In this document: in pieces, positions 1 through 6,409 of the stretch | Numbering within the stretch: the first letter of the stretch is position 1 | Layout of the letters: the number at the start of each line of letters is the position of its first letter | The notes under the pieces: model-generated | What the model saw: only the letters and a program-made list of their open reading frames with translations | What the model was told of the DNA's origin: nothing | The model's database searches: none | Translations under genes and position numbers: made by a program | Virus record (IMG/VR): IMGVR_UViG_2537561992_000024 | Location: 1 to 6,409 of that record | Length of the DNA stretch: 6,409 nt | From: a virus | Taxonomy: Duplodnaviria; Heunggongvirae; Uroviricota; Caudoviricetes | Reading direction: 5' to 3' (one strand)

Positions 1-19
1 CCGAAATGGGAATGAATGA
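1..19 (+). CDS. 3' end of an upstream gene, truncated by the window edge (last codons ...R-N-G-N-E-stop, stop at 17-19); possibly a RusA-like resolvase C-terminus
   Basis: Open frame from the window edge to TGA at 17-19. The stop overlaps the next ATG (16-18) in an ATGA arrangement typical of translational coupling. Only 5 codons are visible, so identity is a guess from lambdoid gene order. Confidence 0.25.
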
Positions 20-156
20 TGTTTGAGTTTTATATGGCAGAACGTCTTCGCCACCGCTGGGGGCGTCTGCGCTTATATCGTTTCCCCGGTTCTGTTTTGA
101 CCGATTACCGAATACTGAAGAATTACGCCAAAACCCTGACAGGAGCAGGAGTATGA
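16..156 (+). CDS. Small 46-aa prophage ORF (MMFEFYMAERLRHRWGRLRLYRFPGSVLTDYRILKNYAKTLTGAGV), YlcG-like, immediately upstream of Q
   Basis: ATG at 16-18 (second ATG at 19-21), stop TGA at 154-156. Not in the ORF track because it is under 60 aa. Its position between a rusA-like gene end and Q matches the DLP12-type nin region. No strong SD is visible. Confidence 0.45.
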   Translation: MMFEFYMAERLRHRWGRLRLYRFPGSVLTDYRILKNYAKTLTGAGV

Positions 157-241
157 AGTCAGAGATAACAATCAACTAATACTGTTTCGTTGATTTTTGC
201 TTGTAATTGGCGTTCTGGTCTGATTTTTGTGGAGTAAGTTG

Positions 242-625
242 ATGCGTGATATTCAGATGGTTCTTGAGCGTTGGGGAGCGTGGGCGGCTAATAATCATGA
301 AGATGTGACCTGGTCGTCCATTGCCGCCGGTTTTAAGGGATTAATTACTTCAAAAGTAAAATCTCGCCCGCAATGTTGTGACGATGACGCGATGATCATT
401 TGCGGGTGCATGGCCCGTCTGAAAAAGAACAACAGCGATTTGCACGATTTATTAGTAGATTATTATGTAGTCGGTATGACATTCATGTCACTGGCAGGTA
501 AGCATTGCTGCTCTGATGGTTATATCGGGAAAAGGTTACAGAAGGCTGAGGGCATAATTGAAGGGATGTTAATGGCATTAGATATCCGGTTAGAGATGGA
601 TATCGTTGTTAATAACTCTAATTAA
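242..625 (+). CDS. Q: Late-gene antiterminator Q (82/21/DLP12-type Q family), 127 aa
   Basis: The track ORF 227..625 begins at TTG. The likely true start is ATG 242-244, preceded by GGAG at 231-234 (7-nt spacing), giving [22 protein letters not shown]... with the Cys-rich CCDDD...CGC and CC motifs. I recognise the sequence as the lambdoid Q (QuuD-like) antiterminator. Confidence 0.9.
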
Positions 626-658
626 TATGCCAATTGTTTACTAAAAATTATTAAGAAT

Positions 659-676
659 GGGGCGTTGAAACGCCCC
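659..676. promoter_or_regulatory. Perfect palindrome GGGGCG-TTGAAA-CGCCCC just downstream of Q; candidate protein-binding or promoter element (TTGAAA could act as a -35)
   Basis: Seen directly: a 6-bp GC stem flanking TTGAAA, followed by an A-rich stretch and -10-like hexamers (TAATAT 690-695, TATAGT 710-715). Function is not established. Confidence 0.3.
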
Positions 677-715
677 CAAAAATAAAGGGTAATATATAAC
701 AGAAGGTTTATATAG

Positions 716-764
716 TTAGAAGCAAGGTTGTGCTTCTAAAGGAAGTGGCTTGAGGGAGCCACTT
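716..764. other. Two consecutive stem-loops (716-739 with a 9-bp stem; 743-764 with an 8-bp stem) between the convergent Q and porin genes
   Basis: Inverted repeats TTAGAAGCA/TGCTTCTAA and AAGTGGCT/AGCCACTT are seen directly. Neither is followed by a U-tract on either strand, so they are not canonical terminators by themselves. Confidence 0.3.
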
Positions 765-804
765 ATATGTTGGGGAGGCAAAGCCTCCCACAACATATGT
801 TTTA
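765..804 (+). terminator. Strong intrinsic terminator (15-bp GC-rich stem with one bulge, AAA loop, then GTTTT); candidate late terminator (tR'-like), also lying just 3' of the porin gene
   Basis: ATATGTTGGGGAGGC-AAA-GCCTCCCACAACATAT followed by GTTTT at 799-803. The stem plus T-tract is canonical on the plus strand. On the minus strand the hairpin sits 10 nt after the porin stop but lacks a U-tract. Confidence 0.6.
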
Positions 805-813
805 GTAATCAAA

Positions 814-1881
814 TTAGAACTGGTAAACCATACCTACAGCAACGATATCATCGGTAGCAACGCCAGATGCTTTCGTGAAATCGCTCTTATCAATCAGGTT
901 GATTTTGTAGTCAACAAAAGTGGACATATTTTTGTTGAAGTAATAGGTTGCACCTACATCAATATATTCAACCAGGTCCTGATCACCCCAAGCACCCAAG
1001 TCTTTCCCTTTAGATTGCAGATAAGCAACGGACGGACGCAGACCGAAGTCGAACTGATATTGTGCAACTACTTCGAAGTTTTGTGCTTTGTTGGCAATAT
1101 GGTTTTTACCAAAAACAGTCATGTTTTGGGTTTCAGAATAGGTAGTAGCCAGATAGATGTTGTTCGCATCATATTTCAGACCAGCTGCCCATACTTCAGC
1201 ATTTTGACCAGATGCATTCAGGCTGTTGTTACCGTAGATAACCTGATTATTAGTGCGATCAGATTTAGCATAGGTTGCACCTACGCCGAAACCTTCATAC
1301 TCATAAGTAGTGGAGAAACCGAAACCATCACCATTAGCTTGAGTTACGTCAGTACGGTCATTTTTACCCTGATACTGAGCAGCAAAGTTCAGACCATCAA
1401 CCAGACCAAAGAAGTCATTGTTACGATAAGTTGCAACACCTGTGGTGCGACCAGTCATGAATACATCTGTTTGGGTCCAGGTATCGCCACCGAATTCTGG
1501 CAGAACGTCGGTCCATGCACCAATATCGTATGCTACACCGTAGTTACGGCCATAATCGATGGAGCCGTAGTCACCGAATTTCAGGCCAGCGAAGGCAAGA
1601 CGGGTTTTATCTTTGGAGGAACCTTGAGATTCAGCGCGGTTGCCTTTGAATTCATATTCCCACTGACCGAAACCAGTCAGTTGATCGTTGATTTGGGTTT
1701 CACCTTTGAAGCCAAGACGGGCATAAGTAGTATCACCATCATCTGCATCATTAGAGGAGAAGTAGTGCTTAGCATTAACTTTCCCGTACAGATCCAGCTT
1801 GTTACTGTCTTTATTATAAATTTCAGCTGCCTGAGCAGACATCGCCATCAGTACTGATGCAGCTACAGCAGAAATTGCCAC
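814..1881 (-). CDS. nmpC: General diffusion porin of the OmpC/OmpF/PhoE family, NmpC/Lc/OmpD-type lysogenic-conversion porin; 16-strand beta-barrel with C-terminal ...VAVGMVYQF
   Basis: The 355-aa ORF has a signal-peptide-like N-terminus ending AQA followed by [16 protein letters not shown], the conserved porin motifs ([35 protein letters not shown]), and a C-terminal Phe. The track ORF starts at GTG 1879-1881 with no SD. An SD-linked ATG at 1893-1895 is out of frame by one base (see findings). Confidence 0.9.
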
Positions 1882-2099
1882 TGTTAATTTTTCATCGTGA
1901 GCCCTTTTTTTGAACTATTATTAAAAAATGATGTCACTGCGCGATAAATATTCATCTAATCAATGTGATTATTTCAAGATGTAAGTTTTGGTTTCTCATT
2001 TGATTTGTGAAGTAGATCTCTATTTTTATCTGAACTTTTTCTATCGAATCCTATTCATGGCTCTTGGCTGAATAAAAATAAATCTATTAGCCAATTTAT

Positions 2100-2140
2100 A
2101 TTAATGGCTGTTATTTATAAGTGCCCTATAATTTGAAGGT
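2100..2140. promoter_or_regulatory. AT-rich block with a perfect TATAAT (2127-2132, plus strand) and a TTGAAC...TTATAAAT arrangement on the minus strand; candidate promoter(s) for the late/lysis transcript and/or the porin
   Basis: Hexamers are seen directly, but no good -35 lies 17 bp upstream of the plus-strand TATAAT. Strand and function are unresolved. Confidence 0.2.
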
Positions 2141-2321
2141 TCAATTTAAATCGGCTAAAAATAACGCTGGAAATTATTTGTTGGTTATTTGTTGAGATTT
2201 GTTTATGTATTTGTAGTGGTGTTTTCAATACTCGGTAGCATTCTCGCAAATATCATTTAGTGGTTTACGTACGTAAAAAATTGGTTATGCTGTTAAGAGT
2301 GGTTACTTCGTCACACAGCTT

Positions 2322-2350
2322 AAACCCGCCGTCGAGCGGGTTTTTCCATT
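2322..2350 (+). terminator. Intrinsic terminator about 130 bp upstream of the holin gene (stem AAACCCGC/GCGGGTTT, loop CGTCGA, then TTTTTCCATTTTTT)
   Basis: A GC-rich stem and U-tract are seen directly. Its placement just upstream of S resembles lambda tR'. Confidence 0.5.
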
Positions 2351-2482
2351 TTTTGAGTCTCGATATTAGCTGATAACCCAATACCTGAGTTATTCACTGA
2401 CTCCGAGTCTGTTACGTTTCTGCTTTTTTGCGATACGTTGTATTCCCTCAATTTACACCCGCTTTGTCTGCGAGGTGGGGTT

Positions 2483-2698
2483 ATGAAATCCATGGATAAG
2501 TTAACAACGGGTGTCGCCTATGGCACCTCAGCAGGTAGTGCCGGTTACTGGTTTTTACAGCTGCTCGATAAAGTCACGCCCTCACAGTGGGCAGCAATAG
2601 GTGTGCTGGGTAGCCTGGTATTTGGCCTGCTGACGTACCTGACAAACCTTTATTTCAAGATTAAAGAAGATAAGCGCAAGGCTGCGAGAGGTGAATAA
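2483..2698 (+). CDS. S: Class II holin / pinholin (S21-type) with dual-start motif MKSM (antiholin from M1, holin from M4), 71 aa
   Basis: ATG at 2483 is preceded by GAGGTG at 2472-2477, with a second in-frame ATG at 2492. The product [71 protein letters not shown] has two TMDs and a charged C-terminus. The track ORF 2438..2698 starts at an upstream ATG with no SD. The stop overlaps the next gene's ATG. Confidence 0.9.
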
Positions 2699-3195
2699 TG
2701 CCTCCATCATTACGAAAAGCCGTTGCTGCTGCTATTGGTGGCGGAGCAATTGCTATAGCATCAGTGTTAATCACTGGCCCAAGTGGTAACGATGGTCTGG
2801 AAGGTGTCAGCTACATACCATACAAAGATATTGTTGGTGTATGGACTGTATGTCACGGGCATACAGGAAAAGACATCATGCTCGGTAAAACGTATACCAA
2901 AGCAGAATGCAAAGCACTCTTGAATAAAGACCTTGCCACTGTCGCCAGACAAATTAACCCGTACATCGAAGTCGATATACCGGAAACAACGCGCGGCGCT
3001 CTTTACTCATTCGTTTACAACGTGGGTGCTGGCAATTTCAGAACATCGACGCTTCTTCGCAAAATAAACCAGGGCGATATCAAAGGCGCATGTGATCAGC
3101 TACGTCGCTGGACATATGCTGGCGGTAAGCAATGGAAAGGTCTCATGACTCGTCGTGAGATTGAGCGTGAAATCTGTTTGTGGGGTCAGCAATGA
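2698..3195 (+). CDS. R: SAR endolysin (T4-lysozyme-like muramidase, R21-type) with an N-terminal signal-anchor-release domain, 165 aa
   Basis: The start overlaps the holin stop (TAATG). The Gly/Ala-rich weak [23 protein letters not shown] is followed by the catalytic triad positions E35, D44 and T50 in [18 protein letters not shown]. Confidence 0.92.
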
Positions 3196-3653
3196 ACAGA
3201 GTAACCGCGATTATCTCCGCTCTGGTTATCTGCATCATCGTCTGCCTGTCATGGGCTGTTAATCATTACCGTGATAACGCCATTACCTACAAAGCCCAGC
3301 GCGACAAAAATGCCAGAGAACTGAAGCTGGCGAACGCGGCAATTACTGACATGCAGATGCGTCAGCGTGATGTTGCTGCGCTCGATGCAAAACACACGAA
3401 GGAGTTAGCTGATGCGAAAGCTGAAAATGATGCTCTGCGTGATGATGTTGCCGCTGGTCGTCGTCGGTTGCACATCAAAGCAGTCTGCCAGTCAGTGCGT
3501 GAAGCCACCACCGCCTCCGGCGTGGATAATGCAGCCTCCCCCCGACTGGCAGACACCGCTGAACGGGATTATTTCACCCTCAGAGAGAGGCTGATCACTA
3601 TGCAAAAACAACTGGAAGGAACCCAGACGTATATTAATGAGCAGTGCAGATAG
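3192..3653 (+). CDS. Rz: Rz inner-membrane spanin (i-spanin), 153 aa
   Basis: ATG 3192-3194 overlaps the endolysin stop (ATGA). The product has an N-terminal TMD ([19 protein letters not shown]) and a coiled-coil periplasmic domain, and is lambda-Rz-like. The track ORF starts at an upstream GTG. Confidence 0.9.
3412..3594 (+). CDS. Rz1: Rz1 outer-membrane lipoprotein spanin (o-spanin), 60 aa, embedded in the +1 frame of Rz
   Basis: GGAG at 3401-3404 sits 7 nt before ATG 3412. The product has a lipobox (LVVVGC) and a proline-rich mature region ([16 protein letters not shown]), and lies entirely inside Rz in another frame. Confidence 0.88.
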
Positions 3654-3656
3654 AGC

Positions 3657-3674
3657 TGCCCATATCGATGGGCA
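3657..3674. terminator. Short hairpin (TGCCCAT-ATCG-ATGGGCA) between the convergent Rz and bor stops; possible weak bidirectional terminator
   Basis: A 7-bp stem with a 4-nt loop is seen directly. No U-tract on either side, so confidence is low. Confidence 0.25.
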
Positions 3675-3684
3675 ACTCATGCAA

Positions 3685-3978
3685 TTATTGTGAGCAATAC
3701 ACACGCGCTTCCAGCGGAGTATAAATGCCTAAAGTAATAAAACCGAGCAATCCATTTACGAATGTTTGCTGGGTTTCTGTTTTAACAACATTTTCTGCGC
3801 CGCCACAAATTTTGGCTGCATCAACAGTTTTCTCCTGTCCAATTCCCGAAACGAAGAAGTGATGGGTGATGGTTTCCTTTGGTGTTACTGCTGTCGGTTT
3901 GTTTCCAACAGTAAACGTCTGTTGAGCACATCCTGTAATAAGCATTGCCAGAGCGGCAGAAAACAACATTTTTTTCAT
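3685..3978 (-). CDS. bor: Bor outer-membrane lipoprotein (serum-resistance lysogenic-conversion protein, Iss family), 97 aa
   Basis: ATG at 3978..3976 is preceded by AGGA. The product MKKMLFSAALAMLITGCAQQTFTV...YTPLEARVYCSQ has a lipobox (LITGC). The track ORF 3685..4026 starts 16 codons upstream at an ATG with no SD. Confidence 0.9.
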   Translation of the reverse strand: MKKMLFSAALAMLITGCAQQTFTVGNKPTAVTPKETITHHFFVSGIGQEKTVDAAKICGGAENVVKTETQQTFVNGLLGFITLGIYTPLEARVYCSQ

Positions 3979-4274
3979 CTTATTATCCTGCATTGTTAAA
4001 AACGGCAGAATCCTATGTGACAACAATTAAACGATAGTTAAATGGATTGATGAAAATTAAAACTATATAGGTGGATGCTCAGCCTATTGGAGGAGGGGGG
4101 CACTCAGAATCCTGTGGAATGAAATAAACCGCTCTATCTGTCCATTACCCTTTTAGCTGCGCTGTATCGTCGCCGTATTCCCGCATTAACCATGACCGTA
4201 GCCCGACGGGGAATTCCTTCTGCGTGAGTGTGCGGGAATAATCAAAAACGATGCACACCGGGTTTTACTGTGCT

Positions 4275-4277
4275 GAC
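4275..4277. repeat. Left copy of the 3-bp target-site duplication (GAC) flanking the IS element
   Basis: GAC lies immediately outside the left terminal inverted repeat, and an identical GAC lies immediately outside the right one (5593-5595). Confidence 0.7.
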
Positions 4278-4318
4278 TGAACCGCCCCGGGTTCCTGGAG
4301 AGTGTTTTATCTGTGAAC

Positions 4319-5206
4319 TCAGGCTGCCAGATCATCGTTTCCGATGGAAGCATAATAAGCTTTTTCTGCTTCTGCCGGAGGAGTATGGCCCAGCCTTCCC
4401 AGCAATCGTCGATTGTTATACCAGTCCACCCACGTTAGTGTGGCCAGTTCCACTTCTGCACGGTTTTTCCAGCTCTTACGGTGTATTACCTCCGCTTTGT
4501 AAAGACCATTGATGCTCTCAGCCATCGCGTTGTCATACGAGTCACCTGTACTCCCTGTTGATGCCAGCAATCCGGCTTCTTTTAGTCGCTCCGTATAGGC
4601 CAGTGACACATACTGAGAACCTTTATCACTGTGATGGACTGTGCCGGACGGCCGACGGGCCCACAACGCCTGCTCCAGTGCATCCAGCACGAATGTCGTT
4701 TCCATAGACGATGAGACTCGCCACCCCACGATACATCCGGCAAACACATCAATGATGAACGCCACACAGACGAAGCCCTGCCATGTGCTGACGTAAGTAA
4801 AATCAGCCACCCACAGCTGGTCAGGACGTTCTGCCACGAACTGACGGTTTACGCGGTCGCCTGCGGAAACGGCTTTCCGGCTGACGGTAGTACGGACCTT
4901 TTTACCCCGGAGAACACCGGCAAGTCCCATAACCGCCATGAGGCGCGCCACTGTACATCTGGCCACCCTGATACCTTCGCGTAACAACTGGCGCCAGACT
5001 TTACGCACACCGTACACCTGATGATTTTCATCGTATACGCGCTGTATCTCTCTCTTCAGCCAGTCATCGCGCTGAGCACGGGCACTGCGTTTATCAGGAT
5101 GATGTCGCTGTTGCTGACAGTGGTAATACGTTGACGGGGCAATATGCAGCTCACTGCATACCGGTCCGACCCCGTACTGCTCACGCAGCTTATCCAGCAG
5201 TGGCAT
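4319..5206 (-). CDS. IS3-family transposase OrfB (DDE/RNase-H-fold catalytic domain), 295 aa, apparently intact
   Basis: Continuous ORF carrying the catalytic residues in context: WVADFTYV (D), HHSDKGSQY (D) and DNAMAESINGLYKAE (E). I recognise it as IS629-type OrfB. Confidence 0.9.
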   Translation of the reverse strand: MPLLDKLREQYGVGPVCSELHIAPSTYYHCQQQRHHPDKRSARAQRDDWLKREIQRVYDENHQVYGVRKVWRQLLREGIRVARCTVARLMAVMGLAGVLRGKKVRTTVSRKAVSAGDRVNRQFVAERPDQLWVADFTYVSTWQGFVCVAFIIDVFAGCIVGWRVSSSMETTFVLDALEQALWARRPSGTVHHSDKGSQYVSLAYTERLKEAGLLASTGSTGDSYDNAMAESINGLYKAEVIHRKSWKNRAEVELATLTWVDWYNNRRLLGRLGHTPPAEAEKAYYASIGNDDLAA

Positions 5207-5538
5207 TATTTTTTCCAGAGGCGGTCGAACTCCGCCTTCGCAAAATAAGCGGAAGCCTGGCGAAGGATATCGTTACTGCGGCGCAGTTCACGATTTTCAC
5301 GTTCCAGCTCTTTTCAGACGCTGACGTTCAGCGCTGGTGAGCCCCACCATCACCGCCCCCCGGTATCCCCGCTCCATGCTGGCGAACCCAGACACGCAGG
5401 GTCTCCGGCGTACAGCCAATCTTTGGGGCAATGGAACAAATTGCCGCCCACTGTGAGTCATATTCATCCTGACTTTCCAGAACCATACGAATCGCCCGCT
5501 GACGGACTTACGGGGGAAAAACGAGTATTTTTAGTCAT
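5206..5538 (-). pseudogene. IS3-family OrfA (HTH plus leucine-zipper transposase N-terminal module), disrupted by multiple single-base insertions
   Basis: ATG at 5538..5536 with AAGAGG 7 nt upstream opens MTKNTRFSP, then stops after 24 codons. The OrfA motifs continue in other frames: [44 protein letters not shown] (+1), [10 protein letters not shown] (+2), and ELERENRELRRSNDILRQASAYFAKAEFDRLWKK-stop (back in frame 0). Confidence 0.75.
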
Positions 5539-5592
5539 CCTGTTTACCTCTTTCTCAGGGAGTTTAGTCTCCAGGATTTCCGGGGCGGTTCA

Positions 5593-5595
5593 GAC
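5593..5595. repeat. Right copy of the 3-bp target-site duplication (GAC)
   Basis: See the left copy at 4275-4277. Confidence 0.7.
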
Positions 5596-5655
5596 AGACG
5601 CAGGGTTACCCTCATAGTCGCTTTTCCGGTGCGATGGTGGAAGAAACCGGGATGT

Positions 5656-5850
5656 TTATTCATCATCACTTTGGATTGATGTATATGCTCTCTTTTCTGA
5701 CGTTAGTCTCCGACGGCAGGCTTCAATGACCCAGGCTGAGAAATTCCCAGACCCTTTTTGCTCAAGAGCGATGTTAATTTGTTCAATCATTTGGTTAGGA
5801 AAGCGGATGTTGCGGGTTGTTGTTCTGCGGGTTTTGTTCTTCGTTGACAT
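5656..5850 (-). CDS. Small basic protein (64 aa) with a ribbon-helix-helix-like pattern (RNIRFP strand, then helices NQMIEQINIALEQ and NFSAWVIEACRRRL); putative DNA-binding protein of the cos-proximal region (YlcI/DUF3950-like)
   Basis: ATG at 5850..5848 on the minus strand gives MSTKNKTRRTTTRNIRFPNQMIEQINIALEQKGSGNFSAWVIEACRRRLTSEKRAYTSIQSDDE. The fold is inferred from the sequence pattern only. Confidence 0.6.
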   Translation of the reverse strand: MSTKNKTRRTTTRNIRFPNQMIEQINIALEQKGSGNFSAWVIEACRRRLTSEKRAYTSIQSDDE

Positions 5851-6050
5851 GAGGTTGCCCCGTATTCAGTGTCGCTGATTTGTATTGTCTGAAGTTGTTT
5901 TTACGTTAAGTTGATGCAGATCAATTAATACGATACCTGCGTCATAATTGATTATTTGACGTGGTTTGATGGCGTAGATGCACGTTGTGACATATAGATG
6001 ATAATTATTATTCATTTTGCGGGTCCTTTCCGGCGATCCGACAGGTTACG

Positions 6051-6062
6051 GGGCGGCGACCT
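6051..6062 (+). other. cosN: the 12-nt cohesive-end sequence GGGCGGCGACCT (identical to phage lambda), with lambda-like flanks (ACAGGTTACG upstream; CGCGGGTTTTCGCTATTTATGAAAATTTTCCGG downstream)
   Basis: I recognise an exact match to the lambda cohesive-end sequence and its immediate flanks. It sits between the right-arm genes and a Nu1-like gene, as in lambda. Confidence 0.85.
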
Positions 6063-6100
6063 CGCGGGTTTTCGCTATTTATGAAAATTTTCCGGGATCC

Positions 6101-6111
6101 ATGTCCGGTTT
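6101..6111. repeat. cosB R3-like terminase-binding repeat (ATGTCCGGTTT), inverted relative to the two downstream copies
   Basis: Reverse complement of the AAACCGGACAT core repeated at 6157-6169 and 6187-6199. Confidence 0.5.
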
Positions 6112-6156
6112 CTCTTCAAGTTAACTATATGAAAAATATAAAAACAGGTCTTCTGT

Positions 6157-6169
6157 GAACCGGACATGA
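6157..6169. repeat. cosB R2-like repeat (GAACCGGACATGA)
   Basis: Direct repeat of the 6187-6199 copy, separated from the R3-like copy by an A/T-rich spacer (a possible IHF-bend region). Confidence 0.5.
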
Positions 6170-6186
6170 ACAAAAAATAGATATGT

Positions 6187-6199
6187 AAACCGGACATGA
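6187..6199. repeat. cosB R1-like repeat (AAACCGGACATGA), part of the local palindrome AAACCGG-ACATGA-CCGGTTT
   Basis: Seen directly. It lies about 45 bp upstream of the terminase small-subunit start. Confidence 0.5.
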
Positions 6200-6245
6200 C
6201 CGGTTTTGTTGTGATTGTGAGGTGAGAGTTTTTGCGAGGTGAGGA

Positions 6246-6409
6246 GTGGCTACGCAGACTGAAGTTGCCAGGCATTTAAGTCTGACCGATCGCCAGCTTC
6301 GCAGATTGCAGAAATTGCCGGGTGCCCCGATATCAAATAAGCGAGGGCAACTGGATCTGGATGCCTGGCGCGATTTTTACATATCGTATCTGAGGAGAAG
6401 TAAAAACGA
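6246..6409 (+). CDS. Terminase small subunit (Nu1-like, N-terminal winged-HTH), 5' part only; continues beyond the window
   Basis: GTG 6246 is preceded by GAGG at 6236-6239 and an in-frame stop at 6240-6242. The product (M)ATQTEVARHLSLTDRQLRRLQKLPGAPISNKRGQLDLDAWRDFYISYLRRSKN... resembles the lambda Nu1 N-terminus in pattern and sits directly after cosB. Confidence 0.6.
   Translation, partial: MATQTEVARHLSLTDRQLRRLQKLPGAPISNKRGQLDLDAWRDFYISYLRRSKN

Follow-up and report, generated by a model that had tools for sequence, protein, structure and literature searches.

An out-of-frame start in a prophage porin gene, probably owing to a single base under-called in a draft contig

Among the described systems that resemble the porin gene analysed here are the lysogenic-conversion porin genes nmpC, carried by the defective lambdoid prophage DLP12 of Escherichia coli K-12, and lc, carried by phage PA-2. 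In K-12, nmpC has the same position as our gene, between quuD and the holin–lysozyme–Rz cassette, and likewise lies on the strand opposite to these genes. K-12 nmpC is approximately 93% identical to it at the DNA level, and its 5' region (...AAGGGCTCACG-ATG-AAAAAA-TTAACAGTG) is the same except for one A, which our gene has lost from the run that follows the start codon (five A, or A5, versus six, or A6). The lesion in K-12 is of a different kind, i.e. a copy of IS5 directly 3' of the porin reading frame, which presumably truncates nmpC.

Even closer are the porin genes of finished O26:H11, O103 and related genomes of the enterohaemorrhagic E. coli (EHEC) lineage (e.g. strains 11368, 98E11 and E2865), where they are annotated as 'porin OmpC'. 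Bases 814-1880 of our sequence are 100% identical to this gene, which is intact and present as a single copy in the finished O26/O103-lineage genomes; these genomes, however, carry A6 within the coding region and A8 just upstream of it, whereas A5 and A7 are found here. At a larger distance, the general porins OmpC, OmpF, PhoE and OmpK36, i.e. trimeric 16-strand beta-barrels, match the mature protein over its full length and share its C-terminal Phe, but in contrast to chromosomal ompC our gene is borne by a prophage.

A conversion-porin gene in its prophage setting

The window, i.e. the whole stretch of 6,409 bp that was analysed, is the reverse complement of the complete draft contig ADUN01000159.1 of assembly GCA_000188755.2, which may belong to a batch of E. 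coli drafts pyrosequenced in 2010-11. Its sequence identifies it as the late part of a DLP12-like lambdoid prophage, and the best explanation for its origin is a host belonging to the O26/O103/O111 lineage of EHEC. The closest finished genomes are from the O26:H11/O103/O111 EHEC lineage, with strain 98E11 being 99.4% identical over positions 1-6095 of the window. According to the list of open reading frames and the annotation of the matching stretch in 98E11, the Q antiterminator gene quuD (227..625, plus strand) is the convergent downstream neighbour of the porin gene, and the lysis cassette of essD (holin), rrrD (lysozyme) and rzpD (Rz), which occupies 2438..3653 on the plus strand, diverges from the porin promoter region. 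The porin gene itself (814-1895, minus strand) thus sits between quuD and essD-rrrD-rzpD on the opposite strand, which is the position of a conversion porin. Beyond the lysis cassette follow bor/iss, an IS3-family element, which has the same position in 98E11, and then ylcI. A scan of both strands of positions 700-2450 for promoter consensus sequences gave no match.

At its right end, the contig departs from O26/O111-lineage sequence at 6095, and positions 6096-6409 are a 99.7% match to DNA that, in genomes of O121 and others, precedes a gene annotated as 'terminase small subunit'. The prophage may accordingly be recombinant, or else the contig may be chimeric at this end.

By sequence as well as position, the porin gene is assigned to the NmpC/Lc type of conversion porins. 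Its product as deposited, of 355 amino acids, contains the Pfam domains Porin_1 (PF00267) and Porin_4 (PF13609), and the 360-amino-acid protein that is obtained when the missing A is restored scores 517.7 bits on the NCBIfam model NF007841 'porin OmpC' (cut-off 484) and stays below the cut-offs of the PhoE and OmpF equivalog models. Sequence comparison aligns residues 19-355 with the mature chains of OmpC, OmpK36 and PhoE, for which structures have been solved, from residue 1 to the end (E approximately 1e-130). From this end-to-end match it follows that the mature part is complete and that cleavage of the signal peptide takes place after ...SAQA. On the minus strand, the coding part for the mature porin extends over 817-1827 and that for a truncated signal peptide of 18 amino acids, as written, over 1828-1881. 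Porin_1 covers the whole mature protein, which together with the end-to-end similarity to 16-strand porins places it in the general porin family, and the C-terminus reads ...VGMVYQF and so ends in Phe.

The porin start as deposited

On the minus strand, positions 1911-1879 read AAAAAAAGGGCTCACG-ATG-AAA-AAT-TAA-CA-GTG. An SD-like motif, AAGGG (1902..1906, minus strand), has its GGG spaced 6 nt from the ATG, and the same motif stands before the annotated start in finished genomes. As written, this ATG (1895-1893), which is the normal start codon of the porin, opens a mini-ORF of only three codons (ATG-AAA-AAT-TAA; 1884..1895, minus strand), which translates to Met-Lys-Asn and stops 2 nt upstream of a GTG. 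The gene's single lesion is the A5 run itself (1888..1892 on the minus strand, T5 on the plus strand), where all finished genomes examined have A6; in alignments to finished genomes, the run is one base short and nothing else is missing there. A second run, A7 at 1905..1911 (minus strand), lies just upstream of the SD motif and overlaps it; all relatives that are otherwise identical have A8 at this site, with A7 being found in more distant alleles.

The porin ORF in the list of reading frames begins with the GTG and comprises 355 amino acids (814..1881, minus strand; stop codon at 814-816). This GTG (1881-1879) is the first start codon past the upstream stop in the porin frame, the codons ahead of it reading A-H-D-E-K-L-T, and no AGGAGG-like or other SD motif was found upstream of it. 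Its product begins with MAISAV... and has no Lys in this stretch. With A6, by contrast, the ATG comes into frame and gives MKKLTVAIS, and in finished genomes PGAP annotates a porin of 360 amino acids from this ATG. As written, the sequence therefore lacks a Sec signal peptide that has a basic n-region and is translated from the SD-linked start; it regains one once a single A is restored.

An earlier note on this DNA had described an SD-linked ATG at 1895..1893 that is followed by A5 and an immediate TAA, and direct reading and translation of the sequence bear this out. That the porin frame runs as D-E-K-L-T-V-A-I-S through the same bases, and that a sixth A would fuse the ATG to it, is borne out by the alignment to finished genomes; the start MKKLTVAIS, which the note had ascribed to NmpC/Lc-type porins, occurs in thousands of annotated genes; and the list of reading frames together with the sequence agrees with its view that GTG 1879-1881 is the sole in-frame start, has no SD and leaves a signal peptide without a basic n-region. 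The A5 frameshift is confirmed, standing in the deposited sequence exactly as described, and is no chance pattern; its presence in the organism's DNA is a separate matter.

Run lengths in other genomes and in the draft contig

The comparison of run length with other alleles that the earlier note had proposed gave A6 in every finished genome checked and A5 in none. Among 5,426 finished E. coli genomes, none contained a 34-mer with A5, whereas the corresponding 35-mer with A6, which served as a control, was found in 2,808 genomes at 3,272 places (with 2,762 records being exact). The low-complexity filter of BLAST was considered as a cause of this null result and rejected, because the control was recovered from these 2,808 genomes in spite of its A-run. 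None of 3,116 records matched a 70-base query exactly over its full length, and A5 was also absent from GTDB species representatives and from metagenome contigs. In IMG/VR, the coding run was A5 once, A6 at least 120 times and A7 never. According to the earlier note, its proposal would be refuted by reference porin genes that combine A5 with a documented GTG start; such genes were sought, and none exist in finished genomes. The whole region including the IS3-family element is found, at a coverage of at least 80%, in 130 finished records, none of which can carry A5, since the A5 34-mer has no match in finished genomes.

For 122 loci, the lengths of three runs were tabulated, i.e. the upstream T-run, the A-run before the SD and the coding A-run. 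The combination was 6/8/6 at 78 loci, 6/7/6 at 40 loci and 6/6/6 at one locus; the window, which was entered twice (as such and as locus L004), has 6/7/5, and a second prophage sequence, L002, has 5/6/5. The noncoding A-run thus varies freely in nature and the coding A-run does not, which is the reverse of the pattern of a phase-variable gene. The natural polymorphism at 1905-1911 (A8 at 78 loci, A7 at 40 and A6 at one) alters the length of the A-tract that abuts the GGG of the SD motif, and might modulate porin expression. In phage PhiR68_2 (PV340576.1; locus L131, 356-1499), two overlapping coding sequences are both annotated as OmpD, and the start shows the normal A8 and A6; this 'OmpD (x2)' was considered as a second frameshifted porin and rejected as an annotation miscall, which combines an upstream out-of-frame ATG with an internal Met.

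Outside of the IS element, the contig differs from 98E11 by two substitutions and four one-base indels. The latter are a private deletion at position 7 (G3 versus G4; run at 8..10, plus strand), which lies 7 nt from the contig end in the 3' end of rusA, the deletions at 1887 (A5 versus A6) and 1904 (A7 versus A8), and an extra T at 6011, which doubles a single T. The first three of these four (7, 1887 and 1904) are located in runs of three or more. The state of the window at position 7 is shared by no other locus compared, as against 63 loci with G4, and its state at 6011 likewise by none, as against 36 with the other state; G3 at 8-10 is probably an end-of-contig error. The short A7 run is located 17 nt upstream of the A5 run. 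The upstream region 1896-2330 reaches at best 99.8% identity with finished genomes (435 versus 436 bases), and A7 accordingly lacks one base, too, compared with all relatives that are otherwise identical. A natural allele with 98.9% identity (L008) differs by 37 substitutions, and the only two indels in this comparison are the window's own.

The IS3-family element, which is IS629/IS1203-like (4100-5640, minus strand), contains an intact orfB (4319-5206, minus strand) and a good match to the ALIL frameshift pseudoknot (5135-5251; RF01497, 120 bits). In the finished O26/O103-lineage relatives, its orfA is intact and has the programmed frameshift, whereas orfA is broken in the window by six inserted bases, which are seen nowhere else and mostly lengthen C or T runs (5311..5510, minus strand). 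None of approximately 15,900 finished-genome copies of the stretch 5311-5510 reaches 99% identity, the best one being 97.5% identical (235 versus 241 bases), and for the IS body there is no exact match among approximately 29,500 copies, the best one reaching 99.2%. The sequence of the element looks like a collapsed-repeat or mosaic consensus. With approximately ten private one-base indels, but only two private substitutions outside of the IS element, in 6.4 kb, the contig resembles a poor consensus rather than a product of natural divergence. This is how run-length miscalls in draft assemblies would appear: unshared one-base changes occur mostly in runs, indels outnumber substitutions, and several genes of one short contig are frameshifted. 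Unlike such miscalls, however, the contractions in the window are spread unevenly over the long runs and cluster at the porin start.

This clustering recurs in L002 (IMGVR_UViG_2529292908_000009), the only other public carrier of A5, which represents a different prophage allele with 97.8% identity to the window. Over 13,725 bases, L002 differs from the finished genome FDAARGOS_1248 by three substitutions and three one-base deletions (99.96% identity). Each of the three deletions shortens one run of an adjacent trio beside the porin start, leaving T5, A6 and A5 (3320-3365, corresponding to 1885-1930 of the window), with the other 15 runs of at least 6 nt being unchanged; if three of the 18 runs were hit at random, this very trio would be picked once in 816. 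In the window, two of the 11 runs of at least 6 nt in the reference stretch are contracted, both of them beside the porin start and both belonging to the trio of L002. The region of the porin start has a G+C content of 28-34% and three long runs within 45 nt. A split terminase had hinted at L002 being a generally error-ridden assembly, but this was rejected in view of its 99.96% identity over 13.7 kb and of the terminase remnant being shared.

An artefact at a repeat boundary was also considered for the porin start and rejected as a cause of the clustering, because the upstream as well as the coding region is single copy in the O26/O103-lineage genomes listed. The idea had been based on four other assemblies, whose contigs end 2-7 nt upstream of the GTG; that these ends turned up at all also reflects selection, the exact 355-amino-acid product having been the query. 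These four (L003, L005, L006 and L007) are short-read assemblies with contigs ending at this site (first 10 bases), and gene callers therefore report the identical 355-amino-acid 'GTG-start' product although no frameshift is involved. Such contig ends are one way in which truncated-looking porins can enter protein databases.

Sequencing error, real mutation and their consequences

The earlier note had offered three readings, i.e. a sequencing error of one nucleotide, slipped-strand phase variation and a silenced porin. It is the first that is best supported; phase variation fails on the absence of A5 from all 3,272 finished-genome copies, the lack of A7 in IMG/VR and the shortness of the run, and a silenced porin survives only as a private and very recent lesion of a single strain. 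We thus consider it likely that A5 is a sequencing or assembly error, i.e. an under-called run length in a low-quality draft contig, because the same short contig contains several other one-base run-length errors. Taken together, the private indels, the short neighbouring A-run, the broken orfA and the inexact IS body indicate a poor consensus. Judged from these sequence data, the base is most likely missing from the deposited consensus and not from the chromosome. The run in the real DNA would then probably be A6 and the gene an ordinary intact NmpC/Lc-type porin gene, with translation from the SD-linked ATG producing a precursor of 360 amino acids (MKKLTVAIS...), whose normal Lys-Lys signal peptide would be cleaved after SAQA. 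Three observations count against an error: the fault is local, affecting two of 11 long runs with no uniform run-length bias; L002, which is independent and nearly perfect over 13.7 kb, also has A5, such that a real mutation may recur; and the region is single copy, so that a repeat boundary cannot account for the local clustering. For the clustered contractions, the likeliest cause seems to be a small number of poor reads, with correlated errors, over a stretch that is hard to sequence.

Alternatively, A5 could be a genuine -1 frameshift that is private to this strain and very young, which would make the gene a pseudogene and silence the prophage porin completely or nearly so. This we regard as unlikely, even though the deposited sequence reads exactly so, loss of the gene is apparently tolerated, as illustrated by the IS5 copy next to the porin frame in K-12 DLP12, and the occurrence of A5 also in the clean 13.7-kb contig of L002 suggests that the change may recur in nature. 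Ribosomes starting at the SD-linked ATG would in this case synthesize Met-Lys-Asn and halt at the TAA, and termination–reinitiation at the GTG, which follows 2 nt later, could yield a little porin at most; this precursor, whose signal peptide (MAISAVAAS...) is devoid of the Lys-Lys n-region, would be exported poorly. Leaky reinitiation and poor export are what translational coupling and the role of the signal-peptide n-region lead one to expect. However, A5 occurs in none of the 3,272 finished-genome copies, and none of the 130 finished records that share the whole region and the IS element can carry it. The body of the gene shows no other decay and none of its finished relatives shares A5, although one or the other would be typical of a genuine pseudogene. 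Moreover, no fewer than nine further private one-base indels are present in the contig (in rusA, intergenic DNA and IS orfA), which would not be expected from real evolution at a divergence of two substitutions, and the second contraction, 17 nt away in noncoding DNA, has no selective rationale.

A more specific variant assumes real, clustered -1 deletions in adjacent runs, with A5 having arisen or been selected independently in the window and in L002, i.e. a recurrent inactivation hotspot. An error-prone polymerase such as Pol IV, acting near a repaired break, might generate such deletions, and turning the porin off could allow, for example, escape from a phage or colicin that uses it as a receptor. 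As a whole, we consider this improbable. The co-location at the porin start in two independent assemblies may reflect either a reproducible weak spot of sequencing or a real hotspot.

Very improbable is reversible slipped-strand phase variation between A6 (ON) and A5 (OFF), with the porin being encoded by a contingency gene. Admittedly, the run is located within the first codons of a gene for a surface protein, which is a classical site for such tracts, and the OFF length is seen in two assemblies. Yet the run is A6 in all 3,272 finished copies and at no fewer than 120 IMG/VR loci, with no A7 found in IMG/VR, and the coding run shows none of the change that the neighbouring noncoding run does (A7 at 40 loci, A8 at 78), which differs among loci and thereby demonstrates that run-length change becomes visible where it is tolerated. 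Mononucleotide contingency tracts typically comprise at least 8 nt, and the run, which measures 5 nt in the window and 6 nt in its relatives, is shorter than known switching tracts; ON and OFF lengths are not both common among isolates either. In a literature search, nmpC was linked to phase variation by passing co-mention only. Finally, that A5 with a GTG start is a normal porin allele can be dismissed with near certainty: nothing but the existence of the ORF speaks for it, and it is contradicted outright by the absence of A5 from finished genomes in which the A6 control is abundant, by PGAP using the ATG with A6, and by a GTG that has no SD and a signal peptide without a basic n-region.

As the A5 run is thus probably a sequencing error, this gene provides a caution, i.e. 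that one miscalled base in a draft can fake a striking 'out-of-frame start' in a gene for a surface protein. A cheap check is to count the bases of the run in finished genomes and to search the contig for indels that relatives do not share. Should the lesion be real, a dispensable prophage porin would have been lost in yet another individual strain, which would be of minor interest. The potentially important part is that run contractions are co-located in the same 45-nt stretch of two independent assemblies.
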